Of a stretch of 64,000 bases of DNA, positions 4,521 through 18,735 are shown piece after piece. The translations under genes and the position numbers were made by a program. This DNA is from a virus. Under the pieces are notes generated by a model. It searched no databases and was not told the origin of the DNA. It saw only the letters and a list, made by a program, of their open reading frames with translations. Numbering within the stretch: the stretch's first letter is position 1; each line of letters opens with the position of its first letter. The stretch lies in the IMG/VR virus record IMGVR_UViG_3300025030_000006; one strand, written 5' to 3'.

Positions 4521-5097
4521 ATATTTGGTTTTTAGAAAAAATAGTTCTTACATAAGTATCTTCAAACCATTCACGTTCTTTTTTATCAAAACATAATCCC
4601 CATTTTTCTTTTATCATTATCCAAAGAATTCTGTATTCTACTCTATTAATCAATGGCATCCAATCAGACGGGTTTTTAGCTCCCTTTTCCCGATTACTCT
4701 TGGCTGTGACTGCAATTAAATGATTTGGGTCAGCAAGATAATTTGCATACTCAATACGTCTTTCCTGACTCCATTTATCAGCGCCAGAAATCCATGCTTC
4801 TTTTAAAGGAATAAAATGGTCTATATCCAATTCAGAAGGATTTGTAATAATACTTCCGGTATATCTGCAAATCCAGATTCCCCATTCTACTTTTCCATTT
4901 TTATCAAATCGAACAGGAATAATACTTTCCTCAATTAGAACTTCCTGCCTTGTGTCCCTCCCGTTGTTATCGGTGTCAATCCAGCCATTACCAAAATGCT
5001 TTTCCCTATTATATTTCTCCGCAAAACAAATTCCAAAACTTAATAAAGTAATAACTAAACAGGAAATTAATATTCTCATTATTCTTCTCCTTAACAA
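4507..5097 (-). CDS. secreted DUF1524/His-Me-finger type nuclease
   Basis: Track ORF. N-terminal signal-like segment ILISCLVITLLSFGICFA. DIDHFIPLKEAW...NHLIAVTAKSNREKGAKNPSDW matches my recollection of the DUF1524 (GmrSD C-terminal) motif. Confidence 0.7.
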   Translation of the reverse strand: MLRRRIMRILISCLVITLLSFGICFAEKYNREKHFGNGWIDTDNNGRDTRQEVLIEESIIPVRFDKNGKVEWGIWICRYTGSIITNPSELDIDHFIPLKEAWISGADKWSQERRIEYANYLADPNHLIAVTAKSNREKGAKNPSDWMPLINRVEYRILWIMIKEKWGLCFDKKEREWFEDTYVRTIFSKNQICEEQ

Positions 5098-5267
5098 TCC
5101 GTATTTTTCTCTTCCGGTAATTCATAATACATGGCAATCGAAGCACACTCTTCATCTGTATATTCTCCTTCCAAATCATCGGAGAAACAACATGGAATAA
5201 AAGGAGTTTGTAATTTAGGTTCCTGAAAAGGTTCAGAATACCAATAACGAGATTCACTAACACACAT
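5091..5267 (-). CDS. small highly acidic protein (58 aa), possible nuclease partner or inhibitor
   Basis: Translated by eye: MCVSESRYWYSEPFQEPKLQ...EEKNTDC. GGAG lies 9 nt upstream of the ATG. Overlaps the nuclease start codon. The track ORF 5009..5281 is in a different frame. Confidence 0.45.
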   Translation of the reverse strand: MCVSESRYWYSEPFQEPKLQTPFIPCCFSDDLEGEYTDEECASIAMYYELPEEKNTDC

Positions 5268-5290
5268 TTAATTTTCTCCAAAATAATAAA

Positions 5291-5575
5291 TCAATTATTT
5301 TCTGCATAAAAGTCATCCCATTTTTGTTTGTATTTTTGCCACGGACCCGTAGCACGTTCATTGTTTCAAGAACTGCAAGCAATTTGTAAATTCAAAAAAT
5401 GCCAGTTTCCCCCCAAGGATAATGGATGAAGATGTTCAATCGTTGCCAAATGAAAGGGTAATTTTTCTCGGCAATAGAAACATGGTGCTTTTTTTCTCGA
5501 ACCATATTTTTTAAAAAGTTTCTTTTTGATTTCCTTTTTCTGACTGCTATTTCTTGCACTGGAAAACTGACTCAT
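5291..5575 (-). CDS. HNH endonuclease with in-frame TGA (5366..5368) at the expected Cys of the C-x-x-C-N motif; either a pseudogene or a UGA-readthrough/selenocysteine candidate
   Basis: Track ORF 5366..5575 reads CFYC...TIEHLHPLSLGG...NLQIACSS*. The frame stays open for 24 more codons (NNERATGPWQKY...) to the stop at 5291..5293. Confidence 0.55.
5338..5353 (-). promoter_or_regulatory. SECIS-like hairpin GCUACG-GGUC-CGUGGC, +16..+31 from the U of UGA
   Basis: 6-bp stem with one G.U pair and a GGUC tetraloop at +22..+25. GC-rich in an AT-rich context. Confidence 0.4.
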
Positions 5576-5608
5576 AAGGATATGTCCTCCTTATAATAAA
5601 ATTAATTT

Positions 5609-5869
5609 CTAGATATAATGTTCTTCTTCGATTAATAATCCGTTTTCGTTAAAATAAAACCTTTCCATTTTATAATCAGGATTACAAGAACAGGACGGGC
5701 AGTTTTCAATTAACAAAGCAGCATCATCCGGGTCTATACCATAAATCCTTACCATATTACTTTTATGCACGTTGCATTTATTACAAAATAAATGTATCCG
5801 ACCTTCCTGTAATTCTTCAAATAATTCCATTCCCATTCTGAAACAACCATCCCATACAAAATCATTCAT
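5609..5869 (-). CDS. hypothetical Cys-rich protein
   Basis: Track ORF. Contains CNKCNV and CPSCSC pairs. AAGGAGGTAATCAAAAATG RBS. Confidence 0.55.
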   Translation of the reverse strand: MNDFVWDGCFRMGMELFEELQEGRIHLFCNKCNVHKSNMVRIYGIDPDDAALLIENCPSCSCNPDYKMERFYFNENGLLIEEEHYI

Positions 5870-6023
5870 TTTTGATTACCTCCTTTTCCTTACAATAATT
5901 ACAGATACCAGATTCAATCCCCATACAAATAAATAATTTATTACATTTTAAAATAACAGAACAATACATACATTTTATTTCCTTATCCATAACAATAAAC
6001 GAGTGATTGCATACTAAATTCAA
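5862..6023 (-). CDS. small Cys-rich protein (53 aa, TTG start)
   Basis: Translated by eye. AAAAGGAGG lies 8 nt upstream of a TTG start. Contains CMYC...CNYC. Overlaps the next start codon. Confidence 0.35.
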   Translation of the reverse strand: MNLVCNHSFIVMDKEIKCMYCSVILKCNKLFICMGIESGICNYCKEKEVIKNE

Positions 6024-6058
6024 TTAATCACCTCCTTTTATTAATTTTACTTTAATCC

Positions 6059-6087
6059 ATTATCTCTCTCTTTATTTTTCAGGTCAA
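6059..6087 (-). promoter_or_regulatory. sigma70-like promoter for the leftward operon
   Basis: On the minus strand: TTGACC, 17 nt, GATAAT. Lies about 35 nt upstream of the RBS of the 6023 gene. Confidence 0.45.
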
Positions 6088-6636
6088 ATATAAAATAATA
6101 TTTGAATTAAAATAATAACCAAATTTTTTATAAAATTTTAAATAGAGATTTATTTTTATAGAATATGGAAAACAAAAGAAAGTATATGACAAAAACCAGA
6201 AGACTACAGAGGATAGACTAGGGAAGGAATCTTTGATTATAAAAAATTTTGAATAAACTAAAAAATAAAAATACTAAAAAATCTACGGGCTGCCTATATC
6301 TATATAAACATACCTTGAATAAAGCAGTTTATTATTTTTATCAGAATTTTGTTACGCTACCTCTTAGCCTCGGGATTTTAAAAAATTCTATACGGTGGGA
6401 TTATTGGTATGAATTATTTATTTCATTTAATTCAATTGTTTTTGGCATGATATTTAATTCAATTAAATAATAATATCAGAAAATGAATTATATTCTATTT
6501 GTTCCAAATTTGCCCTACAATCCATTTAATGTTGAAACCATTATCAGGATATTAGTTTTTAGATAAGGAATGGCAGAGGACCGAATAGAGCCATTAAACC
6601 CTGAATCAATCCCCTGCCATTATCACCGATAAACAA

Positions 6637-6819
6637 TTAACCATTGATTACCTTTCCAAGCCATCCAAGGGAAAACACAGAGGGGAAGGATACAATACGT
6701 TTCCCTGTTACCTTACCGACAATGGATTGTTTATAATCATTCTGATTTAATCGGCTATTGATATTCCGTTTATCCTTTGCTTCTTTCCTCATATAGTTCT
6801 GACATCCTGTATTTTTCAT
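6637..6819 (-). CDS. hypothetical small protein
   Basis: Track ORF. AAAGAAAGGAGTTATTAGATATG RBS. Confidence 0.5.
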   Translation of the reverse strand: MKNTGCQNYMRKEAKDKRNINSRLNQNDYKQSIVGKVTGKRIVSFPSVFSLGWLGKVING

Positions 6820-6848
6820 ATCTAATAACTCCTTTCTTTATTGTTTGT

Positions 6849-7004
6849 TTAATGTTTTGTTCTGTCCAGCAACACAGGTTGCCAGTTAGATAAAAAGATA
6901 TGTAGTGCTAATGCCTCTTGCTCCTTTTCCTTTGCTGTCTCAATTTTCCATGTCCAGTAATCTCTTGAGCTGGTGAACGTTTTTCCATCGATAGTAACTG
7001 GCAT
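6849..7004 (-). CDS. hypothetical small protein (51 aa)
   Basis: Translated by eye: MPVTIDGKTFTSSRDYW... GAAAGGAGTTATTACCATG RBS. Confidence 0.4.
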   Translation of the reverse strand: MPVTIDGKTFTSSRDYWTWKIETAKEKEQEALALHIFLSNWQPVLLDRTKH

Positions 7005-7147
7005 GGTAATAACTCCTTTCTTTTATTATTTATTGGTCTAATTACCAATAAATTCATTTTTAAATACTTAAACATATTCTTTATACAGGGCTTCCAAATT
7101 TGCCTTGTATTAAACGATAAGCCTTAGACCTATGGTAAACCCTACCT

Positions 7148-7183
7148 TAGAATCCCTTTGTTTTAAATGGTAAAGGGATTCTA
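7148..7183. terminator. hairpin TAGAATCCCTTT / AAAGGGATTCTA (12 bp)
   Basis: Perfect 12-bp stem with a 12-nt loop, located just downstream of the minus-strand gene 7191..7337. Confidence 0.4.
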
Positions 7184-7190
7184 TAAACAT

Positions 7191-7337
7191 TTAATTGATG
7201 TTTATTTCGATTTTGGTCAACAGTAAATGGCGCATACCACGGATAAATCCACGGTATTTAAAATGACACAACCAATCCTGCAAGGTGTAATTATACAGAC
7301 CACACCCGCAAAGAAATTTTATTTTTATTTTTTTCAT
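7191..7337 (-). CDS. hypothetical small protein (48 aa)
   Basis: Translated by eye: MKKIKIKFLCGCGLYNY... GGAGTTTATTTATATG RBS. Confidence 0.35.
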   Translation of the reverse strand: MKKIKIKFLCGCGLYNYTLQDWLCHFKYRGFIRGMRHLLLTKIEININ

Positions 7338-7536
7338 ATAAATAAACTCCTTTTTGGTTATTGGTTTAAAACGAAAGAATAAAACCTATGCACAGAATAA
7401 ACAGGATGCACAGAAACAAAGAATAAAAGAATTGAATCATTTTATAAACTCCTTTTTCTTGAATTATTGAATTTAGTATAAAGAGAAAGTGTAAGGGGGA
7501 AGACAGTAAACAGTATCTTACATTATGTTTTATTTT

Positions 7537-7866
7537 TTAAACTCCTTTCCGTTGTTTGATTTTTTCTTTCATGATTTCCAATTTGCTTTTGGGTTTATCC
7601 CGTATCTCATCCTCTGGACTCAATTCTATAATATCTTCCATTTGTTTCTTTTCTTTTACAGGTTTAATAACCTGAATTCCCTCAATACAATATTCTTGTA
7701 TTTCATTGTGATTGATTAAACCTTTATCTGCCAATAACTGCAAAAGTCCAAAAAGCCTATATTCATTTTTTTCAAACCTATTCAATTCCTGTTTTGTTTC
7801 CGGTGTTAATTGTTTCTTTTCCTTTTGCTCCTGTAATTGTTTTCGTTTCAATTCAAGTTTGTTCAT
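7537..7866 (-). CDS. hypothetical coiled-coil-like protein
   Basis: Track ORF. Charged, heptad-like composition. Confidence 0.55.
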   Translation of the reverse strand: MNKLELKRKQLQEQKEKKQLTPETKQELNRFEKNEYRLFGLLQLLADKGLINHNEIQEYCIEGIQVIKPVKEKKQMEDIIELSPEDEIRDKPKSKLEIMKEKIKQRKGV

Positions 7867-7908
7867 TTTGTTATTTCTCCTTTCTGTGGTGTTGCGTTAA
7901 TGAATTTA

Positions 7909-7954
7909 ATAGAATCCCCTATCAGTCAATTAATAAATCAATAAGGGATTCTAT
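7909..7954. terminator. hairpin ATAGAATCCC / GGGATTCTAT (10 bp), same arm sequence as 7148..7183
   Basis: Intergenic, between minus-strand genes 7969..8937 and 7537..7866. Confidence 0.4.
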
Positions 7955-7968
7955 AAATCAATTAACGG

Positions 7969-8937
7969 TTAAAACTTTGCTTTGCAGAATTCAATAAATT
8001 CGGAATAAGCATTATCATCTACGTCCTCGTTTTCTTCAAGGATGATATCCAAAATTTCATTTTCCTCGGCATCACCGAAGCAATCATAACCATCAACCAT
8101 TTCCAAAATATCTTTAATCGTGCTTTTTTCAATTCCCAGATTTTTAGCAAAGGTTGAAACACTGAAAACAGGAGAATTCCCTTTTCCCTTTTCTCCCTTT
8201 GCCGTTTCTGTTTTCCCTTTGGTATCAATATAGGTTTGCCAAAGTGCAGAAACAAATTGCTTTTTGCTTTTTCTTGCACAGATAAACCCTTTACCATTAT
8301 CTTGATTTTTCTTTTCCACTGCTTTCAGTGTTGTTTCCATTGTTTCAATCGTGGAAAAATCACAGCCTTTAAAAGCAAGATTGAAATTTTCTTCGGTGAC
8401 ATTCCCGGAAAAATACTTTTGAAATTGTTTGAAAGCATTACCCGGAAGATTGTTATTTGTTGTTTCCTCTTCTTTCTTTTGTTCAGTAGGTTTTACTGAT
8501 TCAACCTGTTTTGTTTTCACGTTCAAATCAACAAGATTTTTCAAGAGAGTGATAATTTGATCGTTATTGTTATTGAACGTAATACTGTGCAGTTTTTCCA
8601 ATTTTGCGTTGTTTTCTGTCAATTGCGCCTCAATGACCATTAACCGGGAAATAATAGCATCAAGAGATTGTTTGACTTCCTTGACAGCTGCAAATCCTTC
8701 AAGAGATAATGCCGGTTTGGTTTGGATATTGATTGATTGTTTCTTTTCCTGTGCGAGTTTTTTAGCCGCTGCAAGTTTACTCATGGTTTTAAACTCCTCT
8801 GTTAATGGTTTAAAAACATCGAAAAAATGCGTTTTTCCATTGTGGCTGTAAAACTGTCTCACCTGATAATGGTTAACTCTCAATTCCCTTTCTAATTTCC
8901 CGTTTGTTTTAATGCTTTTTTCTAAAAGATAGTTCAT
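7969..8937 (-). CDS. hypothetical protein (322 aa)
   Basis: Track ORF. AAAGGAAAGGAGAATG RBS. No family recognised. Confidence 0.6.
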   Translation of the reverse strand: MNYLLEKSIKTNGKLERELRVNHYQVRQFYSHNGKTHFFDVFKPLTEEFKTMSKLAAAKKLAQEKKQSINIQTKPALSLEGFAAVKEVKQSLDAIISRLMVIEAQLTENNAKLEKLHSITFNNNNDQIITLLKNLVDLNVKTKQVESVKPTEQKKEEETTNNNLPGNAFKQFQKYFSGNVTEENFNLAFKGCDFSTIETMETTLKAVEKKNQDNGKGFICARKSKKQFVSALWQTYIDTKGKTETAKGEKGKGNSPVFSVSTFAKNLGIEKSTIKDILEMVDGYDCFGDAEENEILDIILEENEDVDDNAYSEFIEFCKAKF

Positions 8938-9131
8938 TCTCCTTTCCTTTTGTTAGCGGTTTAAGGCAATTGAATTGCTTTTGCAACCTGATTAAATACT
9001 GGGATGACATAGCAAAACATAATCAAAAGAAAAAAGCATAGGGGAAGAAGCATCAAAATTGCTTTCATGGTAAAAGCTCCTTTCAACTAATAGCAAAGTT
9101 AATTCCCTGCTATTTTTCAAGGGATAGAATG

Positions 9132-9163
9132 TTAGATGTTTATTCAATTAGATGTTTATTCAA
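9132..9163. repeat. perfect tandem duplication, 2 x 16 bp (TTAGATGTTTATTCAA)
   Basis: Read directly from the sequence. Confidence 0.75.
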
Positions 9164-9323
9164 TGATTTTTCCAGCTAAGGACCAAAAAAGCAATTTTTC
9201 CGCGTTTATTGCTGATTCTATATCGTTAAACCTTTCTTCAGTCCGTAATGTGCGTTCACCTTTTTTATTCAATTTGTAAATTGTTATCCAATTTCTTTCA
9301 TCTCTTATAATTTTGTATTTCAT
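9156..9323 (-). CDS. hypothetical small protein (55 aa)
   Basis: Translated by eye: MKYKIIRDERNWITIYKL... AAAGAAAGGATGAAACAAAATG RBS. Confidence 0.4.
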   Translation of the reverse strand: MKYKIIRDERNWITIYKLNKKGERTLRTEERFNDIESAINAEKLLFWSLAGKIIE

Positions 9324-9771
9324 TTTGTTTCATCCTTTCTTTTCTATCCCTTGAAAAATAACAGGCAAAAGATACCTGTTATTTAAATCGGTATTTTGGG
9401 GGATTGTTCCTAGTTGTTTCTAGGGCCACCGTTACCGTTATTCAGTTTTTAAAGAGCAAAAATGGTACGCCTAAATATATATCAAGAATTGCAAGGAATG
9501 CAATACCCAAAAACGCATTTTTTCATATTTTTTTTCCTTCCCCCTGTTTTCGTGGTTTTATCCTATTTTGTGTCCTATTTATTTTCCTGATACCTCTGCA
9601 CACCATTAAAAAATAAGTTTTTCTGTAGTTATCAGGATATACATTTTTTCGTTATGTTTTAAATAACCCTAATAGTCGAAATCATAACGTTATAAACTAT
9701 TAAATTCATTATGTTTTTTATTTTCTATTGGATAAATTAGCTTTTAATCGTGCCGGGAAAACCCAATGTTT

Positions 9772-9819
9772 TCAATAGTTTAAAACCTCTTGACACTACT
9801 TTATATTTTCTGTTAGTAT
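9772..9819 (+). promoter_or_regulatory. sigma70-like promoter with a conserved upstream block
   Basis: CAATAGTTTAAAACCTCTTGACA, 18 nt, TAGTAT. About 45 bp is homologous to 18342..18388. Confidence 0.5.
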
Positions 9820-9864
9820 TTTGAGGTGTTTTAAAAGCATAATTTTCAGAAAGGAGTGCAAAAA

Positions 9865-10068
9865 ATGCTATTAGATAGTTTATTGTTTATTTGTTTTCTG
9901 TTGTTCATTCTGATTCATTCAACGCACCTTGCCTTGTCTGGTTTTAAACCCGTTGACAGTTTGCCTTTATCCATTGGTTTAATTGAATTGATTATGTTTA
10001 ATTCAATTGTTTTCTGCTATCCATTTGCTTTCAACCAATCCAATTCATTCTTAGATTATTTTAATTAA
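9865..10068 (+). CDS. small hydrophobic protein
   Basis: Track ORF 9856..10068. ATG at 9865 lies 8 nt after GAAAGGAG. Downstream of the promoter at 9790. Confidence 0.35.
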   Translation: MLLDSLLFICFLLFILIHSTHLALSGFKPVDSLPLSIGLIELIMFNSIVFCYPFAFNQSNSFLDYFN

Positions 10069-10147
10069 TAAATTTTAATTAGAACTAATTTTCCCCTCTG
10101 CGCCGTAATTCCTGTATAGTCTATTCAATTAATTTTTATCTTATATA

Positions 10148-10276
10148 CATATATAATGTAACAAGGGCATCGAATCCATTTTTTCAATTTTGTTTTCACT
10201 TTTAAAATCAATTCTTTTTATTATTTCATATAATGTAACAAGGTCATCGAATCCAAAATTTTCATTTTATTTTCAG
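10148..10276. repeat. two imperfect ~50-bp direct repeats (10148..10199, 10227..10276)
   Basis: CATAT(AT)AATGTAACAAGG[G/T]CATCGAATCCA...TTTTCA.. occurs twice, immediately upstream of the promoter at 10294. Confidence 0.65.
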
Positions 10277-10293
10277 GTACTTACAAAAATTTC

Positions 10294-10323
10294 TTGACAG
10301 TATTCAAATTGATGATGTAGTTT
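10294..10323 (+). promoter_or_regulatory. sigma70-like promoter
   Basis: cTTGACA, 18 nt, TAGTTT. Precedes the long rightward gene array. Confidence 0.5.
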
Positions 10324-10389
10324 GGCGGAAAATTGGTTTCAATAGCTTCAATAGCAAGTAAACAATTAACATGTGAAAGGAGAAACAAA

Positions 10390-10704
10390 ATGACACGTAA
10401 AGAGTATATAGCTAATTCAAGCGAATTGCACAGACAATACAATGCACAGTTTGTTAATAACAGTATAAAGGTGGCTGTAAAGAATTATTTTGGAATTGAT
10501 GCACTATTGAATAGTAATGATAAACATTTAAATGACATTCCATTAGAACAATGGGATTCTGTCGGCACAAGGTTTAAAAGTCATTTGAATAAAGAAATGA
10601 AGAAACAAGGTGATTTTGTTAGTATGGCTGGAATTGTTTGCGTAATGAAAGAAGCCGCAAAACAATTGATTGAAGAAAATAGAAAGGGGATGCAAAATGA
10701 TTAA
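10390..10704 (+). CDS. hypothetical protein
   Basis: Track ORF 10333..10704. Start moved to the ATG after the GAAAGGAGAAACAAA RBS. Confidence 0.55.
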   Translation: MTRKEYIANSSELHRQYNAQFVNNSIKVAVKNYFGIDALLNSNDKHLNDIPLEQWDSVGTRFKSHLNKEMKKQGDFVSMAGIVCVMKEAAKQLIEENRKGMQND

Positions 10705-10858
10705 ACATAAAACAATTGGATTGACCAGACCATGCAATGCGCATGATTTGATTTTAACGTCAAATGGATTGCAGTGTGCTAATTGTTTGACAATGGATAA
10801 TAATAAGTATATTAAATATGATTTGAATAGAGAAAAAGATAATAGAAAGGAGAATTAA
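10697..10858 (+). CDS. small zinc-ribbon-like protein
   Basis: Track ORF 10670..10858, trimmed to the ATG at 10697. Contains C..H...C..C. Confidence 0.45.
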   Translation: MIKHKTIGLTRPCNAHDLILTSNGLQCANCLTMDNNKYIKYDLNREKDNRKEN

Positions 10859-11041
10859 ATGGAAAAGGTTATTCCATTTAAATCAAGAAAGGATATAGGG
10901 GAAAGTATAGCAAAGGATTATTTTGATGAAATGGATAAATGGTACAATTCCTTGATTGAATATCTTGGAAAGCTGGAACAAGAATTCTTTATTAGTGAAA
11001 GGCGAAGGGGATTTAAAGTATTTAAACAATTAACCAAATGA
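10859..11041 (+). CDS. hypothetical small protein
   Basis: Track ORF. AAAGGAGAATTAAATG RBS. Confidence 0.55.
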   Translation: MEKVIPFKSRKDIGESIAKDYFDEMDKWYNSLIEYLGKLEQEFFISERRRGFKVFKQLTK

Positions 11042-11051
11042 AAGGAGATTT
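11015..11051. repeat. left copy of a 37-bp perfect direct repeat bracketing the Cys-repeat gene
   Basis: AAAGTATTTAAACAATTAACCAAATGAAAGGAGATTT is identical to 11822..11858. Confidence 0.8.
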
Positions 11052-11055
11052 TAAA

Positions 11056-11832
11056 ATGAAAAAAGAAAATGGCTGGTATATCGACGATAATAATAATAAA
11101 TGGGATAGTAATTATTACACAAAGGAACTAGCAATTGAATTATCAAAAACTCTAATTGATTGCAGTGATTGCAGTGATTGCAGGTATTGCATTAATTGCA
11201 GGTATTGCATTAATTGCAGGTATTGCAGTGATTGTAGTGATTGCAGTAATTGCAGTGATTGTAGTGATTGTAGTGATTGCAGTGATTGCAGTAATTGCAG
11301 TAATTGCAGTGATTGTAGTGATTGCAGTGATTGCAGTAATTGCAGTAATTGCAGTAATTGCAGTAATTGCAGTGATTGTAGTGATTGCAGTGATTGCAGT
11401 AATTGCAGTAATTGCAGTGATTGTAGTGATTGCAGTGATTGTAGTGATTGCAGTAATTGCAGTAATTGCAGTAATTGCAGTAATTGCAGTAATTGCAGTA
11501 ATTGCAGTGATTGCAGTGATTGCAGTGATTGCAGTAATTGCAGTAATTGCAGTAATTGCAGTAATTGCAGTAATTGCAGTAATTGCAGTAATTGCAGTAA
11601 TTTTGAAAATAACCCTAATAGATATATTGGTAATAAAATTGGTAGCAGAAAAGCACAAACTACCACTTATTGGTTAAATGATAATATTCAAGTTGTTTGT
11701 GGTTGTTTTAAAGGAAATTTAATTGAATTTGAAAAAAGAGTAAATGAAGTATATAAGGGAAATGAACATCATAAAGAATATATGGGTTATATTTCAATTG
11801 TTAAGAAAATAATGGAGATGGAAAGTATTTAA
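11056..11832 (+). CDS. Cys-triplet repeat protein (49 consecutive C-x-x units: CSD/CSN/CRY/CIN) with unique N- and C-terminal domains
   Basis: Track ORF 11038..11832. ATG at 11056 follows the AAAGGAGA RBS. The repeat keeps three other overlapping frames open. Confidence 0.7.
   Translation: MKKENGWYIDDNNNKWDSNYYTKELAIELSKTLIDCSDCSDCRYCINCRYCINCRYCSDCSDCSNCSDCSDCSDCSDCSNCSNCSDCSDCSDCSNCSNCSNCSNCSDCSDCSDCSNCSNCSDCSDCSDCSDCSNCSNCSNCSNCSNCSNCSDCSDCSDCSNCSNCSNCSNCSNCSNCSNCSNFENNPNRYIGNKIGSRKAQTTTYWLNDNIQVVCGCFKGNLIEFEKRVNEVYKGNEHHKEYMGYISIVKKIMEMESI
11161..11601. repeat. 49 x 9-bp tandem repeat (TGCAGTGAT / TGCAGTAAT / TGTAGTGAT and variants)
   Basis: Counted directly: 441 nt = 49 units. Confidence 0.9.
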
Positions 11833-11858
11833 ACAATTAACCAAATGAAAGGAGATTT
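11822..11858. repeat. right copy of the 37-bp perfect direct repeat
   Basis: Identical to 11015..11051. Covers the 3' end of the repeat gene plus the RBS of the next gene. Confidence 0.8.
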
Positions 11859-11861
11859 AAA

Positions 11862-12350
11862 ATGATTGAATTGGAAAGAGCAAAACAATTGCAGCATGGG
11901 GAAATTATCCATTACTTTAATGGCAAATGTCAAAATTGGAGAGTATCGGGAAAAGTTAAATTGTGGAAAACAAGGCCGGACGAATTGAAAGTACCAATTA
12001 AATATGATTTGTATGGTAATTCCTATTTGACTGAAAAAGTATTGGATATAATACATTTGGCTAGTGAATGCCCATTATGTAAAGAGGGAAGATTGACTAT
12101 TGCAGAATGTATTGATTTGGCTATTAATAAAAGTGAATTGGCAAAGCATTATGGATTGAAGAATTTTGATAATGCAATTCCTGAAATGTTGTTTGCTGAA
12201 TTGATTAGGGGAACTGATTTGACTATTTATCATTTTGTTTATTCCTATGACAGATATAAATCATTTGGTGAATTGTTTCCATTGACTATTGAGGCGGAAA
12301 ACAGAATGAAAGAATTGGAGATAAATATTCCTGATATGCCTAACAAATGA
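11862..12350 (+). CDS. hypothetical protein
   Basis: Track ORF. AAAGGAGATTTAAAATG RBS. Confidence 0.6.
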   Translation: MIELERAKQLQHGEIIHYFNGKCQNWRVSGKVKLWKTRPDELKVPIKYDLYGNSYLTEKVLDIIHLASECPLCKEGRLTIAECIDLAINKSELAKHYGLKNFDNAIPEMLFAELIRGTDLTIYHFVYSYDRYKSFGELFPLTIEAENRMKELEINIPDMPNK

Positions 12351-12382
12351 ATTGAATCTATTTTAAAGAAAGGAGATTTAAA

Positions 12383-12751
12383 ATGAAAAGTTATCAAGAG
12401 GAAAACGTACATCTTAAAGGAATCCATTTGTTTTCTGATTTCTTATCCAATCCAATCCCATTTAAACAACCCAACTTGTATAAACCAATTCCATTCCAAT
12501 TGTCTCAAATAAGTTCTTACCTTCAAATTATGAATAGAAAATGTCAATATTCTTTTGAAGTATTTGAAGTAATGCCAACTGATAAATTGATTGATTTTGT
12601 AAAAGAAAATATGTTGGCAATTGATTATGATTCCATTTATTTTGAAATCATTTGTTATGAGAATAATACAGCCATGTTAATTGCAAAATACAATCAAATC
12701 ATAGGTAGCCGTTGGATTGCCATGATTGATATTAATTCAATTCCCAAATAA
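12383..12751 (+). CDS. hypothetical protein
   Basis: Track ORF. AAAGGAGATTTAAAATG RBS. Confidence 0.6.
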   Translation: MKSYQEENVHLKGIHLFSDFLSNPIPFKQPNLYKPIPFQLSQISSYLQIMNRKCQYSFEVFEVMPTDKLIDFVKENMLAIDYDSIYFEIICYENNTAMLIAKYNQIIGSRWIAMIDINSIPK

Positions 12752-12778
12752 CCAATAACAAATGAAGGGAGAATTAAA

Positions 12779-13645
12779 ATGAACAAACAAGTAAAGAAAT
12801 TGGCTAATGGGATTAAATACATTTCTTGTGATTATCTTTCCTTTGGGGATTATGACAATTCCTGTGCCATTGAAAGGGCGAATGTTAGATATTTAAAAAG
12901 TAAAGTTAGGAAATCCTCAATTGATTCCCATTCAATGAATGACTGGGAATATCTATCCAAGGAATATACAATTGAAAGGGGTCATATTTGGTCTCCAATT
13001 GAAACGAAAAAGAAAATGGTTGAGACATATGGTGGCTATGGTTCAATTCAATTGTGGATAAGGGAAGACGTTTGGAAAGAAATGGAATTGGCTTCATTGG
13101 ATAATTATCCTGCATTGGATGATGAATTGGTTTCTGAAATTGAAATGGAAATGGAAAATGAAGCATGGGAAAATGATGTTAAATCTGATCTGATTAAAAC
13201 ATTATCAGAGGAACATACAGAAGAGGAAATGGATAATCAGGAATGTAAATGTTTAAACTGCAATTGGGAAGGAAAAGTAAATGAATTGAAAGAAGATGGT
13301 ATTTATGGTTGCCCCAATTGCAATAATCATTATTCAATAAAATATTATGATATTGATAAACAAACATTGCAGGAATTTGCTGATGAATTGGATAATGAAA
13401 CCCTTTGGGAAATTTATCGTTATTGCTGCGATAAAACCAATACCTATGGGGAAGTTGAATCCGGTGGCAATTGGTTTATCCAAATTGATGATTTGAAAGA
13501 ATGCTTTGCTAATGTAATTGAAAAATACAGAAATGGAAATGAATTGTGTGATTGTCATGGTAATGGTAGATGGGATAATGAGTTTAAAACAATTGAATGC
13601 GCCTTGTGTCATAATACTGGATTTATTGTTAGCGTAACAGAATAA
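12779..13645 (+). CDS. hypothetical protein with zinc-ribbon and DnaJ-like CxxCxGxG motifs
   Basis: Track ORF. Contains CKCLNC..GCPNC and CDCHGNG...CALCHNTG. Confidence 0.6.
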   Translation: MNKQVKKLANGIKYISCDYLSFGDYDNSCAIERANVRYLKSKVRKSSIDSHSMNDWEYLSKEYTIERGHIWSPIETKKKMVETYGGYGSIQLWIREDVWKEMELASLDNYPALDDELVSEIEMEMENEAWENDVKSDLIKTLSEEHTEEEMDNQECKCLNCNWEGKVNELKEDGIYGCPNCNNHYSIKYYDIDKQTLQEFADELDNETLWEIYRYCCDKTNTYGEVESGGNWFIQIDDLKECFANVIEKYRNGNELCDCHGNGRWDNEFKTIECALCHNTGFIVSVTE

Positions 13646-13682
13646 TTGAATCAATAATTTAACAGATGAAAGGAGAATCAAA

Positions 13683-14147
13683 ATGTATAAACAGGAATTT
13701 AATAATTTAACCCTTTGTCAATTGACTTCTGAACAGAATAAACAAACCTGTGATTATTGGTTTATAGTTCAAAGTGATAGTATGGCTCATACAGCGTTTA
13801 GAACAAAGGATGAATTGAATAGATGGTTACTTGAACGGAATATTGAATTGACGCAAGAATTGGTAGAACATGGAAAGCATTCATTTCAGAAATTGAAAGG
13901 ACATTATTTTAGAACAAGTTACATGGATTATAATGTTTTTTATTCTTTGGATTATATTCAGAAAGCAAGAGTAATGGATAATGATAGATATACTCTTGCT
14001 TTAATAACAGAAGAAAATGGAATCAGAACAATTAATCATTTGAATTGTAATATGAAATTTAGAATTGAATATCATTACAGAACAGGTGAAATGGTATTGG
14101 CAAATAAAATGAAATCATATTCGGATTACACTTATCGTTATAATTAA
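13683..14147 (+). CDS. hypothetical protein
   Basis: Track ORF. AAAGGAGAATCAAAATG RBS. Confidence 0.6.
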   Translation: MYKQEFNNLTLCQLTSEQNKQTCDYWFIVQSDSMAHTAFRTKDELNRWLLERNIELTQELVEHGKHSFQKLKGHYFRTSYMDYNVFYSLDYIQKARVMDNDRYTLALITEENGIRTINHLNCNMKFRIEYHYRTGEMVLANKMKSYSDYTYRYN

Positions 14148-14173
14148 TTCAATAACAAGAAAGGAGATTTAAA

Positions 14174-14350
14174 ATGAGAGATGATTCTTGTAGGCGTCTT
14201 GAAAAAAATACTGTTAAATCAAGGACAAATAGAGCTGATTCAATTGATTTATATTGTGGTGAATGCTTAAAAGAATCTACTATAATTGCTAATATTTCTT
14301 TGTTGATTTATTGTCCCCATTGTGGAAATGGAATTATAATTGGCGCATAA
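14174..14350 (+). CDS. small zinc-ribbon protein (58 aa)
   Basis: Translated by eye: MRDDSCRR...YCGEC...YCPHCG. AAAGGAGATTTAAAATG RBS. Confidence 0.5.
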   Translation: MRDDSCRRLEKNTVKSRTNRADSIDLYCGECLKESTIIANISLLIYCPHCGNGIIIGA

Positions 14351-14368
14351 CAATAAAGGAGAATTAAA

Positions 14369-14554
14369 ATGTTTTACGTTTTTTTTGAAAGGGATAACGA
14401 TTCATTTATTGGTGACAGTAACAAGGAAAAGGAATCAGCTAAAATTCTAAGGGAATTGGCTGATAGGGTTGAAAAGGGGGATAAATCAGGTAAAATATTT
14501 GATTCAAATGGAAATTCAATTGGTATCTTTGGAATTAAAGGAAAGGAGAAATAA
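14369..14554 (+). CDS. hypothetical small protein
   Basis: Track ORF. AAAGGAGAATTAAAATG RBS. Confidence 0.55.
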   Translation: MFYVFFERDNDSFIGDSNKEKESAKILRELADRVEKGDKSGKIFDSNGNSIGIFGIKGKEK

Positions 14555-14714
14555 ACAATGATTTATAATCAGCAAGAAAAAGATATACTCCAAAAAATTT
14601 ATTGGAAAACACATATACACAATAAATAAACAAATGGTTGTGTTTGTTGGGGGTAGATTTTTATTTCACGAAACCTGCTCTAATATATTAAATAAAGGGA
14701 AGGAGAAATAAAAA

Positions 14715-14882
14715 ATGAATGAATTATTCTTGTTTCTTTCCGTACCTTACTTTTTTGTTTTTGGTTTGCTTTGGGAAAAGAAAACATTTGTGAATCTCTT
14801 TCTAAAAGTATTTCACTTGATTATGGCAATTTTTGGAATTATTCTTTTGTTATTGCATTTTGGTTTTGTTATTAAACAATAA
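14715..14882 (+). CDS. small membrane protein (55 aa)
   Basis: Translated by eye: MNELFLFLSVPYFFVFGLLW... GGAAGGAGAAATAAAAAATG RBS. Confidence 0.45.
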   Translation: MNELFLFLSVPYFFVFGLLWEKKTFVNLFLKVFHLIMAIFGIILLLLHFGFVIKQ

Positions 14883-14899
14883 AGAAAGGGGATTTAAAC

Positions 14900-15220
14900 A
14901 TGGTTTCTTTTAAATTCAAAACAAGATATGGATATACGTCTGTAATTGCTGAATTGATAGGTAAAAGAATCAGGTTTAAATTATCCCCATTGAAAGGTTT
15001 CAGACCGTTTCCAATTGAATGTTTTGCAGAATACAACCGTGAACTGCTTTATAAAAAGAAAATCGCTTCTGTCGTAATTGTGTGTGATTCCAATAAACTA
15101 TCCATGTTGGAAATAGTTCGATTAAAAGAAAAAGCCAAGGAATTGTTACCTGTTCCAATTCAGGCAATTGATTTAGTATTTGAAAGACTTGCAAAGGGAG
15201 ATTATTCTGTAGTACGCTAA
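14900..15220 (+). CDS. hypothetical protein
   Basis: Track ORF. AAAGGGGATTTAAACATG RBS. Confidence 0.55.
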   Translation: MVSFKFKTRYGYTSVIAELIGKRIRFKLSPLKGFRPFPIECFAEYNRELLYKKKIASVVIVCDSNKLSMLEIVRLKEKAKELLPVPIQAIDLVFERLAKGDYSVVR

Positions 15221-15265
15221 CAAGCAATTCAAATCCAAATTTTAACAATTGAAAGGAGAATTAAA

Positions 15266-15631
15266 ATGAAAATTGGAACTGATGGAAGCATTGTTGAATG
15301 TCGAAATGAAGGATACACAGTAATTGAATTTGCAAAAAACAAATTATTTAAAAATGGTATATTAGATAAAGATTTTCCTGTGCATGTTACAATCTCAAAT
15401 CCGTATAATTGGGAAAATGGAAAACCATTAATTGGATATAAAAAAGAAGATTTATATTTGTATGATACTTATTATTCTTTTAACGATGCTTTTGAAGTTT
15501 ATTGTACTTATAAAGACGCAATTGATTCTTTTGCTGATTTGAAAAACTGTCCAATTGAAATGGATAATCCTAGTGAATATGATTTGCTTCATTTAATTGA
15601 TGTTGTAAGTCATTATTGTGGTCTTGATTAA
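15266..15631 (+). CDS. hypothetical protein
   Basis: Track ORF. AAAGGAGAATTAAAATG RBS. Confidence 0.6.
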   Translation: MKIGTDGSIVECRNEGYTVIEFAKNKLFKNGILDKDFPVHVTISNPYNWENGKPLIGYKKEDLYLYDTYYSFNDAFEVYCTYKDAIDSFADLKNCPIEMDNPSEYDLLHLIDVVSHYCGLD

Positions 15632-15660
15632 ACAAATTAACAAATGAAAGGGGAATTAAA

Positions 15661-15888
15661 ATGAGAACGTTTATTGAAGAAGTAAAGGTTTATAAGTTTA
15701 ATGAGTTGAGTGATGAAGCAAAACAAAAGGCAATTGAAAATCTGCATGATTTAAATACAAGTTACGATTGGGATCAGTTTATTACTGATGATTTCAAAGA
15801 GAAAATGAATGCAATTGGATTTGTTGTAAGTAATACTTATTTTTCTGGTTTCTGGTCACAAGGGGATGGTGCCTGTTTTGAAGGATAA
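15661..15888 (+). CDS. hypothetical protein, N-terminal part (SGFWSQGDGACFEG motif); ends at a TAA in frame with the next ORF
   Basis: Track ORF. The stop at 15886..15888 is immediately followed by an in-frame ATG at 15889. Confidence 0.55.
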   Translation: MRTFIEEVKVYKFNELSDEAKQKAIENLHDLNTSYDWDQFITDDFKEKMNAIGFVVSNTYFSGFWSQGDGACFEG

Positions 15889-16233
15889 ATGGAAGATTTA
15901 GAATTTTTTATAAAAACACATAAAATGGGGAATAAATTCAGAAAGTTTTTGAATAATGCAGATGATTTGTCAATTACTACAAAACATAGGGGACATTATT
16001 ACCATGAAATGTGCATGGATATTTCGGTAATTGAATATCATTTGTCTGATTCAATTACTCAATCTGAATTTACTGAATTTGAAGAATGGATTACTGAAAC
16101 ATTGAGGGATTATGCAAAAGAATTGTATAGAGATTTGGAAAAGGAGTATGAGTATTTGTCAAGTGAAAAAGTAATCATTGAAACAATTGAGGCAAATGAA
16201 TATGAATTTACCGAAGATGGAAAATTGTATTAA
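15889..16233 (+). CDS. hypothetical acidic protein, apparent C-terminal continuation of 15661..15888
   Basis: Track ORF. Same frame as the upstream ORF. No separate RBS other than GAAGGA inside the upstream coding sequence. Confidence 0.5.
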   Translation: MEDLEFFIKTHKMGNKFRKFLNNADDLSITTKHRGHYYHEMCMDISVIEYHLSDSITQSEFTEFEEWITETLRDYAKELYRDLEKEYEYLSSEKVIIETIEANEYEFTEDGKLY

Positions 16234-16258
16234 TTTATAACAAGAAAGGAGAATTAAA

Positions 16259-16444
16259 ATGAAAGATAAATATTATGATTGGGTAAAGAGATTGGGACAA
16301 TATCATTTATCAATTGGTGGTCAATCAACAACTCTTTGTGGAATGCCAATGATGGGCAATAATTATGCTAAAGTAATTCCAAAGGATGAAAGAACTAAAT
16401 GTAACAAATGTTTTAATATAGCAGAAATTAGGTCATTAACTTAA
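16259..16444 (+). CDS. hypothetical small protein
   Basis: Track ORF. AAAGGAGAATTAAAATG RBS. Confidence 0.55.
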   Translation: MKDKYYDWVKRLGQYHLSIGGQSTTLCGMPMMGNNYAKVIPKDERTKCNKCFNIAEIRSLT

Positions 16445-16465
16445 TAAAGAAAGGAGAATTAAATA

Positions 16466-16648
16466 ATGGATAATGAAGAGTTTAATTTTATTGTAACAAC
16501 AATTGTCAAAGGTAAGAAACAAAACAGAATTGTGAAAGCAGAGAATTCATTATCTGCCAGATTTAAAGTTTATCATCAATTAATGGCAGCAGATAAGAAA
16601 GGCAATTTCACAATTATTGATGTTAAACAGAAAGGAGAAAAACAATGA
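16466..16648 (+). CDS. hypothetical small protein
   Basis: Track ORF. AAAGGAGAATTAAATAATG RBS. Confidence 0.55.
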   Translation: MDNEEFNFIVTTIVKGKKQNRIVKAENSLSARFKVYHQLMAADKKGNFTIIDVKQKGEKQ

Positions 16649-16833
16649 GAAAGGATTCAACAGAGAGACTAATTGATGCTAAAGGTATCCTTGACAATTT
16701 ACTTTTTACTAGAAGTCAAGAAATGTCTGCAATAATTAATCAAGAAATAAGTGTTGTAAGAAGTATTATTTTTAATGTTTTGGTAGCTGAAAACGTTTAT
16801 TGGTGGGAAGAACAGAAAGGAGAAAATAAATGA
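16645..16833 (+). CDS. hypothetical small protein
   Basis: Track ORF. ATGA overlap with the upstream stop. Confidence 0.5.
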   Translation: MRKDSTERLIDAKGILDNLLFTRSQEMSAIINQEISVVRSIIFNVLVAENVYWWEEQKGENK

Positions 16834-17021
16834 CTAAACTTAATCTTCATCATAAAGAAGTTAAAAAGGAAACAAATATAATGATGTTTCGTTGTCCTGA
16901 ATGTCACAAGGATTCTGAATTCAGTAAATGGATTAAATCAGTAAATCATGCAGAACATTCCATTTGTCCTAGTTGTAAAAAGGAAGTAAAAGATACTATG
17001 GTAAAACGAGTGAAATCATAA
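16830..17021 (+). CDS. small zinc-ribbon protein
   Basis: Track ORF. Contains CPECH...CPSCK. Confidence 0.55.
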   Translation: MTKLNLHHKEVKKETNIMMFRCPECHKDSEFSKWIKSVNHAEHSICPSCKKEVKDTMVKRVKS

Positions 17022-17064
17022 CAGATTAATTGAATCCATTTTTATAAAAGAAAGGATAAATCAA

Positions 17065-17254
17065 ATGGATAAAATAAGAATAAATGTAATAAGCAAATAT
17101 GGTAACATTGATGAAATTTTTGAATTCACACCAAAAAAAAACAAAAAGAAACATATTTACAGTTAATACACAAAAAATATTTATGGAAGCAATAAACCAT
17201 GCAAAAGATATAAAAGGCAAAATTGAGATTACTTTTGAGTCTATTCATTTTTAA
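17065..17254 (+). CDS. small gene in two frames joined at an A9 run (17133..17141); frameshift, slippage or homopolymer error
   Basis: AAAGAAAGGATAAATCAAATG RBS. Frame 1 reads MDKIRINVISKYGNIDEIFEFTPKK and stops at 17164..17166. The +1 frame continues ..TKRNIFTVNTQKIFMEAINHAKDIKGKIEITFESIHF*. Confidence 0.35.
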
Positions 17255-17275
17255 ATAAAAGAAAGGAGAAATAAA

Positions 17276-17470
17276 ATGAAAGAATTGCTGGTTATTAAAA
17301 AGGAAATTGAAAGAGTCATTGTAATTGGAGAGAATCACAATTTTGAAAAAGCCAAAAGGCAATATGAGAATCAGGGATACAGAATTATTAGAACGGGGGC
17401 TAGACCAATTACATTGAATCAATACAGTAAAGACGAATTCAAAATGATTGCTGAACGAACAATTGATTGA
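17276..17470 (+). CDS. hypothetical small protein
   Basis: Track ORF. AAAGGAGAAATAAAATG RBS. Confidence 0.55.
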   Translation: MKELLVIKKEIERVIVIGENHNFEKAKRQYENQGYRIIRTGARPITLNQYSKDEFKMIAERTID

Positions 17471-17482
17471 AGGGAAAATTAT

Positions 17483-17767
17483 ATGGATTATTTAAAAAAG
17501 AAAATACATTCTATTAACAGAATAATTGAACATTTAGGAAAGGAAATTAAAATCCAAATTGTGGTTACTTGTTCAATTGACAACATTGGAAGACGTTACG
17601 AATCCAAAGGAACATTTTTGGATAATAGAGCAACAAAACAAACAATCAAAAATGCTTTATGGGATGAAACAATTTATCTAATTCATTTTCTGGAAGCATT
17701 GGGTTTCCCTGAAAATTATGTAATTGAAAAAATGAATGAATTCATTGAAGAGGAAATAAACAAATGA
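17483..17767 (+). CDS. hypothetical protein
   Basis: Track ORF. Confidence 0.55.
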   Translation: MDYLKKKIHSINRIIEHLGKEIKIQIVVTCSIDNIGRRYESKGTFLDNRATKQTIKNALWDETIYLIHFLEALGFPENYVIEKMNEFIEEEINK

Positions 17768-17889
17768 AAAAAGAAATATCGACTGTAGGTTATTGCCCTT
17801 CATGTAGAAAGAAAGTTATGTTTATTAAAACAAAAGATAAGAATGAATATACTTGTGTAACTTGTAAACTTCCATTTTTTAAACAATAA
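17764..17889 (+). CDS. small zinc-ribbon protein (41 aa)
   Basis: Translated by eye: ..YCPSC...CVTC. ATGA overlap with the upstream stop. Confidence 0.4.
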   Translation: MKKEISTVGYCPSCRKKVMFIKTKDKNEYTCVTCKLPFFKQ

Positions 17890-17903
17890 TTGAAAGGAGA
17901 AGA

Positions 17904-18077
17904 ATGAAAAGAATAAATGATAATCAATTGAGAATGGTAAATGATTCTTGTCCATTTTGTTTTGCTGAAATGTATCCGTTACAATCACTTACTTTGGAAG
18001 TCATTTACCGTTGTGGTTCTTCGGGTAGCAGAATAACGGGTTTATATATTAAACAATGTGGAAAGGGGAATAAATAA
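17904..18077 (+). CDS. small zinc-ribbon protein (57 aa)
   Basis: Translated by eye: ..SCPFC...YRCGS. GAAAGGAGAAGAATG RBS. Confidence 0.45.
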   Translation: MKRINDNQLRMVNDSCPFCFAEMYPLQSLTLEVIYRCGSSGSRITGLYIKQCGKGNK

Positions 18078-18078
18078 A

Positions 18079-18279
18079 ATGAATGAACAACAAAAGAAAG
18101 ATGCAGAAGACACAATAAACTTATTGAAAGAAATGGATTATAATTTTATTAGACCAGCAGATTTGATTTTAAAAGAATTTGCTGATGTTTTGTTACTTCA
18201 AGAAGAGGAAATAAATAACTTGAAAACAAGATTGGATTTTGTAGAAAGAGTAAACAAAAGAAATTTGCCCATGAGATAA
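18079..18279 (+). CDS. hypothetical small protein
   Basis: Track ORF 18058..18279, trimmed to the ATG after the GGAAAGGGGAATAAATAAA RBS. Confidence 0.5.
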   Translation: MNEQQKKDAEDTINLLKEMDYNFIRPADLILKEFADVLLLQEEEINNLKTRLDFVERVNKRNLPMR

Positions 18280-18719: not shown

Positions 18720-18735
18720 AAGAAAGGAGAATTAA

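Follow-up and report, generated by a model that had tools for sequence, protein, structure and literature searches.

We analyzed a gene that encodes an uninterrupted series of Cys-x-x triplets, referred to here as the Cxx gene, in the virus record IMGVR_UViG_3300025030_000006. The whole stretch of DNA that was analyzed, 64,000 nucleotides of one strand, is referred to as the window. The window is part of a phage genome of ~98.5 kb that has been assembled several times from groundwater metagenomes, and the European Nucleotide Archive (ENA) contig ERZ27254732 k141_400306 was identical to it wherever the two were compared (2859-21645). The Cxx gene is among the first genes of a long + strand block, with positive GC skew from 10 to 56 kb. 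The block opens with small, tightly packed genes of no known family, followed by replication and recombination genes. An earlier note, made from the letters of the window alone, had read the Cxx gene as a cassette bracketed by direct repeats. The features at the locus are listed below; single letters denote genes that were compared with related phages, A being the Cxx gene, and L-numbers denote contigs and loci.

10859..11041, + strand: upstream gene F (60 aa), whose homologue in the related phage L043 directly adjoins the homologue of gene C
11015..11051, + strand: 37-bp repeat, copy 1, comprising the last 9 codons of the upstream gene (stop included) and the Shine-Dalgarno sequence (SD) of the Cxx gene
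11056..11832, + strand: Cxx-repeat protein gene (258 aa, 51 Cys, isoelectric point (pI) 4.3), organized as N-module, (Cxx)49 and C-module according to the list of open reading frames (ORFs) and the homologues
11056..11160, + strand: N-module, residues 1-35, delimited by AlphaFold2 and by tblastn matches to phages CP21, CPt10 and CP220
11161..11601, + strand: tandem array of 49 x 9 bp (C-S-D/N, C-R-Y, C-I-N), delimited by Tandem Repeats Finder and unit counts; length-polymorphic
11602..11829, + strand: C-module, ~76 aa, delimited by AlphaFold2, a representative-library search and BFVD matches
11822..11858, + strand: 37-bp repeat, copy 2, a duplicated junction that provides the Cxx gene with its two final codons and stop and the downstream gene with its SD
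11862..12350, + strand: downstream gene C (162 aa), conserved in L043 (87%) and L039 (51%)

Flanking repeats and change of position of the Cxx gene

The 37-mer AAAGTATTTAAACAATTAACCAAATGAAAGGAGATTT occurred exactly twice in the window, at 11015-11051 and 11822-11858; no further copy at 3 or fewer mismatches was found in the window, and none was found in 100 shuffles. Past a 1-nt T indel, the two copies stay identical for 7 bases more, through the ATG. Their frames relative to the upstream ORFs differ, (11015-10859) mod 3 being 0 and (11822-11056) mod 3 being 1. Exact matching and frame arithmetic thus bore out the earlier claim of perfect 37-bp repeats in different frames. The same note had the whole gene flanked by the repeats; the coordinates were correct, but the final 11 nt of the gene lie within copy 2.

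The 37-mer opens with 27 nt that form the coding end of gene F (...FKVFKQLTK*; ...FKVINQ* in the L043 homologue), indicating that the second occurrence is a duplicated target junction. Copy 2 replaces the last two codons of the Cxx gene, which ends in MEMESI* here vs MEMENK* in L043 and KMEKEN* or QMEGE* in relatives. In its 3' ~27 nt, the 37-mer resembles other stop/SD/start junctions in the gene block, with which it forms a wider family (families D2/D3). This ~27-nt motif, TTAACAAATGAAAGGAGAATTAAAATG, was found on the + strand with 77-100% identity at at least 8 gene boundaries between 10356 and 17280. It is more conserved than an SD alone requires and may serve both translation coupling and as a foothold for recombination.

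As these junctions share the motif and the repeat includes an SD, the two 37-bp copies might instead be conserved regulatory junctions (a translation-coupling or SD signal) that are kept identical by selection or gene conversion around a fixed resident gene. However, in a comparison of 22 junctions the best other pair shared 32/45 positions and the median was 18, such that the pair at the Cxx gene, with 37/37 and 7 bases more, is an outlier. In addition, regulation would give no reason for the coding end of gene F to reappear where the Cxx gene ends.

Related phages were then compared for presence or absence of the cassette, as the earlier note had proposed. In L043, the homologue of gene F (81% amino acid identity) abuts the homologue of gene C (87%) at a single junction, ...TTTAAAGTAATTAACCAATAACAATTGAAGGGAGATTTAAAATG, with no Cxx gene between them, and L044 shows the same empty F|C junction. 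L043 has an 8-unit Cxx gene of its own two genes downstream of this junction. The gene orders are as follows.

Window: F-A-C-D-B
L043: E-.-F-C-.-A-B-G
L039: E-.-.-C-.-H-.-D-A-B
L051/L052: H-E-A-D-B-G

The Cxx gene therefore occupies three different slots across four related phages. It stands directly before gene B in two of the four, and judging from gene order this slot is probably the older position; at the D|B junction of the window, no remnant of a Cxx gene was found. The cassette proposed in the earlier note is supported by the empty site in a relative, by the three slots and by the identity of the 37-mer as a duplicated native junction. Comparison of the assembled relatives shows the Cxx gene to be positionally mobile among the stop/SD/start junctions of its gene block. 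The empty site in L043 already speaks against a fixed resident, and so does the presence of the gene elsewhere in L043, L039 and L051; we consider conserved regulatory junctions around a fixed gene to be most unlikely.

The exact 37-mer was absent from IMG/VR and from JGI metagenome contigs. No long direct repeats were found around the Cxx genes of other phages, where the longest shared string was 13 nt or less (raw lengths); the perfect duplication in the window therefore looks recent. The Cxx gene of L043 (2095-2622) is bracketed by a degenerate direct repeat of ~28 nt, AACAATCAAACCCAATCAAATGAAAGGA and AACAAACAAAACCCAATCAATGAAAGGAG, which may be an older junction duplication.

The right insertion joint in the window falls within the shared SD/start motif, and the left joint, at the last codons of the gene, has AAA microhomology only. 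Insertion would thus have used one joint in the conserved motif and one microhomology joint, and the gene may have arrived through (two-step) template switching or, alternatively, as a circular intermediate that integrated by a single crossover. The phage encodes a T4-style recombination toolkit, i.e., RecA/UvsX-like (37414-38547), SbcC/Rad50-like (42428-43465) and Mre11/SbcD-like (43628-44548) proteins and a 5'-3' exonuclease (48995-49903). With a RecA/UvsX-type recombinase and the SbcCD-like and exonuclease genes, the phage could now delete the Cxx gene precisely between the repeats, and the predicted join is GGGGATTT-37-mer-AAAATGATTGAA. Precise excision is plausible because of the 37-44 bp of identity and the phage-encoded recombination system.

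Several points weigh against this account of a mobile cassette. No assembly of this phage contained a deletion product with a single 37-mer. Identity to L043 is 60% and 74% for the terminal modules, as against 70-87% for the neighbouring genes. Furthermore, we infer the direction and mechanism of the move, and a relocated orthologue would be indistinguishable from a copy acquired from a relative. The Logan contig L038 ends exactly at the end of copy 1, which is expected of a k=31 graph at a 37-bp repeat and is uninformative.

The movement was compared with the promoter/stem-loop (PeSL) cassettes and mini-circles of T4-type phages (Arbiol et al. 2010, PMC2839356; PMC4122927). In both cases, accessory ORFans in a hyperplastic early region are bracketed by intergenic repeats that end in an SD and start codon, close relatives (here L043/L044) differ by a filled or empty single-element site, the gene reappears in another slot, and the phage encodes its own recombination machinery. 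However, PeSLs are ~100 bp long, whereas the junctions here are stop/SD/start sequences of ~27-37 nt without a sigma-70 promoter or stem-loop. No stable stem-loop was found at four junctions (minimum free energy -1.3 to -3.7 kcal/mol, z -0.03 to +1.27), and sigma-70 promoter-like sites in 9-14 kb were not enriched (20 vs 30.6 expected by chance). The sole promoter-like match near the repeats, at 11030-11057, overlaps copy 1 and is weak (9/12). The flanking copies also differ from PeSLs in being perfect duplicates that contain part of the upstream coding sequence, which points to target duplication and not to exchange between pre-existing elements. Finally, mini-circles are known for PeSLs, whereas no circular intermediate of the Cxx cassette was observed. 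Therefore, the Cxx cassette is not a PeSL, as the defining promoter and stem-loop are absent, although the filled/empty logic is alike. PeSL-mediated shuffling is the closest described mechanism for the movement of the Cxx gene. The locus is a compact natural example of accessory gene movement in phages without PeSL signals, offering a filled and an empty site, a duplicated junction with coding sequence, and three slots in four relatives. We rate the Cxx protein and its movement as fitting known kinds, namely a repeat-rod phage accessory protein and junction-mediated cassette shuffling.

The 9-bp array and its length variation

The start of the Cxx gene was assigned to ATG 11056, which has the SD AAAGGAG 8-9 nt upstream; an alternative start of the ORF, ATG 11038, falls within the SD region. 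The SD spacing and the N-termini of the homologues (MKKENG; all begin MK..NG) indicate that ATG 11056 is the true start. Tandem Repeats Finder reported a period-9 array at 11159-11602 with 49.3 copies, 91% matches and 0 indels. In frame, 11161-11601 holds 49 units without interruption (23 CSN, 21 CSD, 3 CRY and 2 CIN), placing a Cys at every third residue over 147 residues. The 49 units given in the earlier note were thus recovered by both methods, the count coming from a single short-read assembly. The order of units, with TGT Cys codons shown in lower case, is DDYIYIYDdNDddDNNDdDNNNNDdDNNDdDdNNNNNNDDDNNNNNNNN. Units vary chiefly by G/A (Asp/Asn) and C/T (synonymous Cys) changes, which are arranged in runs, as had been noticed for the G/A changes, and in higher-order blocks (NNDdD).

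Signs of translation and selection were the retention of 99.5% of Cys residues with diverse codons, the 0 indels in the array, deletions in multiples of 9 bp and a strong SD. The Cxx gene is probably a real, translated accessory gene in the early/replication block of the ~98.5-kb groundwater phage; we hold the best explanation as a whole, to which this belongs, with moderate confidence. In public gene calls, the array is read out of frame at 11165-11677 (7304-7816 of L029) as a 170-aa IAVIAV... product. Because gene callers use the wrong frame in the array, the Cxx protein of the window is missing from protein databases. ORFs on the minus strand or off frame in the array (LQLLQ..., ITAITA..., IAVIAV...) were rejected as frame artefacts of the repeat.

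The length of the array differed between assemblies. The contig L037 (ERZ27254729), from another sample of the same study, represents the same phage with 42 units vs 49. Its flank before the array showed 0 mismatches in 8302 bp against the window, and the difference is a clean 63-bp in-frame loss of the units NNNNDdD between repeated NNDdD blocks. In the same aquifer, a sister phage carries a 14-unit allele (P0006) in five samples (L051-L055) and a 6-unit allele (P0121) in one (L056); an in-frame deletion of 72 bp between two 36-bp blocks separates the two alleles, the flanks of which show 0-1 mismatches. Judging from these alignments, the unit-number differences fit slipped-strand or unequal recombination between internal higher-order blocks, and the two pairs of alleles support, in short-read assemblies, the slippage-prone length that had been predicted. 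Repeat length thus varies between assemblies of one aquifer study (Rifle-type groundwater), the read sets of which are public.

It counts against this reading that all length variants come from short-read assemblies, in which collapse of the 441-bp array is possible. The length differences, and perhaps also the count of 49, could then be assembly artefacts of an array that is stable in vivo. The array exceeds the Illumina read length, iterative-k assemblers can collapse internal repeats, and contigs break in or beside the array: L030 begins within it, at 11539, and the 42-unit contig L037 runs into the unique post-array sequence and ends 36 nt past the array. However, a k=141 junction sequence of the 42-unit contig does not occur in the 49-unit version. 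Moreover, the sister arrays, at 126 and 54 bp, are short enough to be covered by a single read, and five samples independently yielded the 14-unit allele. Family members have between 9 and 49 units, and homogeneous arrays use lineage-specific codons. We consider an assembly artefact rather unlikely, and genuine variation in array length remains the preferred reading.

Among the best 120 of 524 homologues, unit number was 9-36 with a median of 19, and a wider set of Cxx genes on viral loci reached 42 units; the 49 units of the window are the longest seen. DNA-homogeneous arrays with other codons were found in unrelated lineages, i.e., TGCTCGAAC (L017), TGCTCCGGT (L002) and TGTTCAGAC (L006), and also in L011. 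Homogeneous arrays built from different codons show repeated, independent and recent expansions.

As expected of a variable-number tandem repeat (VNTR), the in-frame unit differs in copy number between otherwise identical genomes, here as short-read assemblies. Because the unit is strictly in frame, variation in the Cxx array changes protein length and does not switch expression. Length-variable repeats with heterogeneity within a population have been described in phage CP220 and attributed to slipped-strand mispairing or recombination (PMC2853527). Those repeats are ~75 bp and lie outside genes with one exception, whereas the Cxx unit is 9 bp and in frame.

Modules and Cys tract of the Cxx protein

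The Cxx protein matched PHROG 15341, which has no assigned function (E 7.4e-41, 141 bits, residues 1-135), and its C-module also matched phrog_20532 (5e-12) and phrog_7964 (8e-6). A search of 5.8 billion proteins returned 524 matches, all unnamed and of the same architecture. No family in Pfam (none at E up to 1), NCBIfam or PADLOC matched the protein, and nothing was found in the literature on a Cxx-repeat phage family, papers on Campylobacter phages included. The remark in the earlier note that the family was not recognized was therefore fair. For a repeat of 9-49 units with 99.5% invariant Cys, no Pfam model, solved structure or literature was found; nevertheless, hundreds of phage genomes encode the family; their hosts span many phyla, and cultured Campylobacter phages are among them. 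Contigs of metagenome-assembled genomes from many phyla also carried the family in a single-protein scan.

The window protein has the N-module, the in-register Cys tract and the C-module with the IGSR...CGCF motif that characterize the family. The N-module (~35 aa; consensus MK..NG.W.D.NNN.W....YT.E.A...S.TL.NC) was modeled by AlphaFold2 as three short strands and a helix, with a predicted local distance difference test (pLDDT) score of 94-97. The alpha/beta C-module (~75 aa; consensus NP.RY....IGSR..QTT.YW.....QVVCGCF.G.L.EFE..V, in which CGC is almost invariant) was modeled as four strands and two helices with a pLDDT of 92-98. A profile of the C-module had no match among PDB sequences.

The C-module alone was found in 518 proteins of a 1.8-billion representative library by exhaustive phmmer search; a word-index search gave 2 matches only. 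It occurs in stand-alone proteins of 60-90 aa and also follows pentapeptide or YdcK/hexapeptide solenoid repeats (library-wide phmmer E 1e-7 to 1e-9). Pfam Pentapeptide, B_solenoid_ydck and Hexapep matches were found in proteins sharing the C-module, and its BFVD structure matches fell again into the pentapeptide and YdcK/hexapeptide solenoid classes. These phage beta-solenoid proteins (P0211, P0227, P0252; BFVD A0A6J7X720, A0A8S5N619) carry a homologous C-module of ~70 aa, IGSR...CGCF.G.L.EFE. Like the Cxx protein, they are phage-borne, have no assigned function and follow the plan of cap, repeat rod and C-module; they differ in their N-module and in having 5- or 6-residue units vs 3-residue Cys-x-x, and the pentapeptide and hexapeptide (left-handed beta-helix (LbH)/YdcK) repeat models of Pfam did not match the window protein. 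As Cxx and solenoid proteins have the C-module in common, phage accessory proteins of the 'rod plus cap' type may constitute an entire class.

Other family members end differently. The N-module and tract are followed by a Lys/Pro-rich tail ending in ...RKLELEL in clusters of 5-7 paralogues (L007, L004, L008) and by an unrelated 107-aa C-terminal domain in L017. No C-terminal module is present in L009 or in the Campylobacter phages CPt10, CP21 and CP220. In the Eucampyvirinae proteins CPt10_1641, CP21_165 and H6SUK4, the N-module is 46-56% identical to that of the window and is followed by an uninterrupted Cxx tract. In contrast to the window protein, they lack the C-module and have more hydrophobic second positions (CID, CYK, CLN); they are annotated as hypothetical. 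In the paralogue clusters (L007 787-7434, L004/L005, L008), a Lys/Pro-rich basic linker precedes a conserved ...IRQEYNINDRKLELEL motif.

In 2486 units from 120 homologues, position 1 was Cys in 99.5%, position 2 was Ser in 60% and Arg in 15%, and position 3 was Asp in 34%, Asn in 19%, Tyr in 17% and Gly in 14%. The only strong signal in the order of unit types was avoidance of the same unit at lag 2 (z = -5.9). No signal peptide was detected, the N-terminus MKKENGWYIDDNNNKW being hydrophilic, which suggests a cytoplasmic and therefore reducing location. In a reducing cytoplasm, thiolate-metal coordination would be favoured over a disulfide ladder, as generally known for CxxC sites. The tract holds the position of the beta-solenoid rod in the plan shared with other C-module proteins.

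Our best guess is a cytoplasmic, thiolate-stabilized rod in an accessory early protein. With lower confidence, we propose that metal-thiolate contacts, most likely to Zn, or Cys-Cys contacts hold the Cxx tract together as a rigid, rod-like ladder. Such a rod would replace the beta-solenoid of the sister architectures and space or present the terminal modules to a host or phage partner, and changes in tract length would tune the spacing of the modules. Several results weigh against this reading of the tract. No 4-unit or 6-unit (12- or 18-residue) periodicity was found, lag 4 lying within z = 2.1. The pLDDT of the tract was 28-70 in the AlphaFold2 model of the window protein and 47-52 in that of an 11-unit homologue. 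Foldseek returned nothing from the PDB below E 0.3 for either model. The low-confidence tract of the AlphaFold2 model was drawn with a bridge at every Cys over residues 121-178. The metal-binding or Cys-ladder solenoid suggested in the earlier note is plausible and consistent with the position of the tract in the shared plan; against it stand the low pLDDT, the lack of periodicity and the lack of a significant PDB neighbour.

One alternative is a disulfide-bonded right-handed beta-helix of the Tenebrio molitor antifreeze protein (TmAFP) type, which would make the Cxx protein an extracellular or ice-/surface-binding protein. TmAFP (1ezg/1l1i, PF02420) likewise has a short-period repeat rich in Cys, Ser, Thr, Asp and Asn with a Cys ladder. 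A phmmer match to 1ezg (E 6e-5) was the sole PDB sequence neighbour, TmAFP was the top, non-significant Foldseek match in the PDB, and PF02420 is weakly flagged in the GenBank annotation of a Campylobacter phage homologue. However, the 1ezg match is composition-biased (bias 44 of 25 bits), and PF02420 was unmatched even at E up to 1. TmAFP is a secreted, disulfide-bonded protein with a 12-residue coil and Cys every 6 residues, whereas Cys spacing is 3 in the Cxx protein and a signal peptide is absent, hence a reducing cytoplasm. Because the tract has neither 4- nor 6-unit periodicity, TmAFP-like 12-residue coils and LbH-like 18-residue coils do not fit it. We regard the antifreeze-type helix as very unlikely.

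Pentapeptide repeats form the DNA-mimic fold in Qnr and MfpA. The Cxx protein might similarly act as an acidic DNA mimic, i.e., an anti-restriction or anti-defence decoy like Ocr, ArdA or the pentapeptide-repeat proteins Qnr and MfpA. It has a pI of 4.3, a net charge of about -19 and 21 Asp residues that are spaced along the tract by multiples of three; the gene is surrounded by early accessory genes, and pentapeptide repeats occur in the sister architectures. Nevertheless, the median pI of the family is 6.1, 34% of the homologues are basic, the charge of the tract per unit ranges from -0.21 to +0.56, and the tails of some paralogues are basic and rich in Lys. Neither PADLOC nor known anti-defence families gave a match. 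Mimicry as a family-wide property was rejected on these charge statistics, and for the window protein we consider it unlikely.

CxxC and CxxCxxC are the classic ligand spacings of Zn and 4Fe-4S sites. The tract could thus serve primarily to sequester or deliver metal ions, as a sponge or iron-sulfur carrier of metallothionein-like or poly-CxxCxxC ferredoxin-like type, and not as a structural spacer. The tract is 33% Cys, the protein is cytoplasmic, and CGC in the C-module is almost invariant. However, there was no Pfam Fer4 or metallothionein match. Metallothioneins are small, with ~30% Cys in CxC/CxxC, metal-thiolate clusters and no aromatics; the tract has a similar Cys content, whereas Tyr makes up 17% of position 3 and the Cxx protein is 28.5 kDa with folded end modules. 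The hydrophobic and CP context of ferredoxins is missing; neither a Fer4 match nor a CP within the tract, as in the 4Fe-4S pattern CxxCxxCxxxCP, was found. In addition, the folded terminal modules, which are exchanged with non-Cys solenoids, argue for a scaffold role. A metal sponge or carrier has some plausibility, yet we find it rather improbable.

As a further alternative, the tract could undergo post-translational modification in the manner of ribosomally synthesized and post-translationally modified peptides or of a His-Xaa-Ser system with a radical S-adenosylmethionine (SAM) maturase. The protein faintly matched NCBIfam HxsA4, a three-residue-repeat protein (E 0.012), but the 16.4 bits are far under the 55-bit cut-off. 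A radical SAM gene lies three genes downstream of a Campylobacter phage homologue; no maturase, however, is conserved beside the homologues in the window and four other phage contexts. The folded terminal domains are unlike leader-core precursors, and we give this alternative hardly any credence.

The thiolate-stabilized rod is thus retained as the preferred reading of the tract. More tentatively, and with some doubt, the tract could be an undescribed fold, i.e., a continuous metal-thiolate (Zn/Fe-S chain) ladder of slippage-set length. Phages would employ it where others have a beta-solenoid, as a tunable rigid spacer or a redox- or metal-active rod, and would transfer it between genomes on a junction-targeted cassette. 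We see a modest chance of a new fold or a new metal-binding principle in the Cxx tract.

Neighbouring genes and genome context

No match was found when an annotated phage collection was searched with the DNA of 9-14 kb of the window, and gene C had no relative in IMG/VR. No conserved partner gene or enzyme of the Cxx gene was found; three further large phages show runs of small unannotated genes. The later genes of the + strand block encode, besides the RecA/UvsX-like, SbcC/Rad50-like, Mre11-like and 5'-3' exonuclease proteins, a split family-A DNA polymerase, DnaB and another helicase. The polymerase is divided into 22141-23805 and 24626-26038 (phrog_17 positions 478-893 and 896-1257), and the gap of ~820 bp contains a 159-aa ORF (24140-24619) without a Pfam match.

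Gene B (12779-13645), which directly follows the Cxx gene in two related phages, encodes a 288-aa protein with paired CxxC motifs and a weak match to the Anti-TRAP zinc-binding domain (PF15777, E 0.02). Contigs L031, L032 and L033, from other samples, all break at ~12969/12970 inside this gene. In L031, 10 nt stand in place of 30 nt of the window (12971-13000), which leads to a frameshift; this is a second variable spot in the gene block.

The upstream minus-strand block contains an ORF with a GmrSD_C-like nuclease domain (4507-5097, - strand, and neighbours; 646-1714 of L029). This domain belongs to a type IV restriction family and is unusual in a phage. An HNH_5 ORF lies two genes from it, across a 58-aa ORF. 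Finally, a tRNA-Leu gene (anticodon TAA) is present in the early gene block at 21375-21466.

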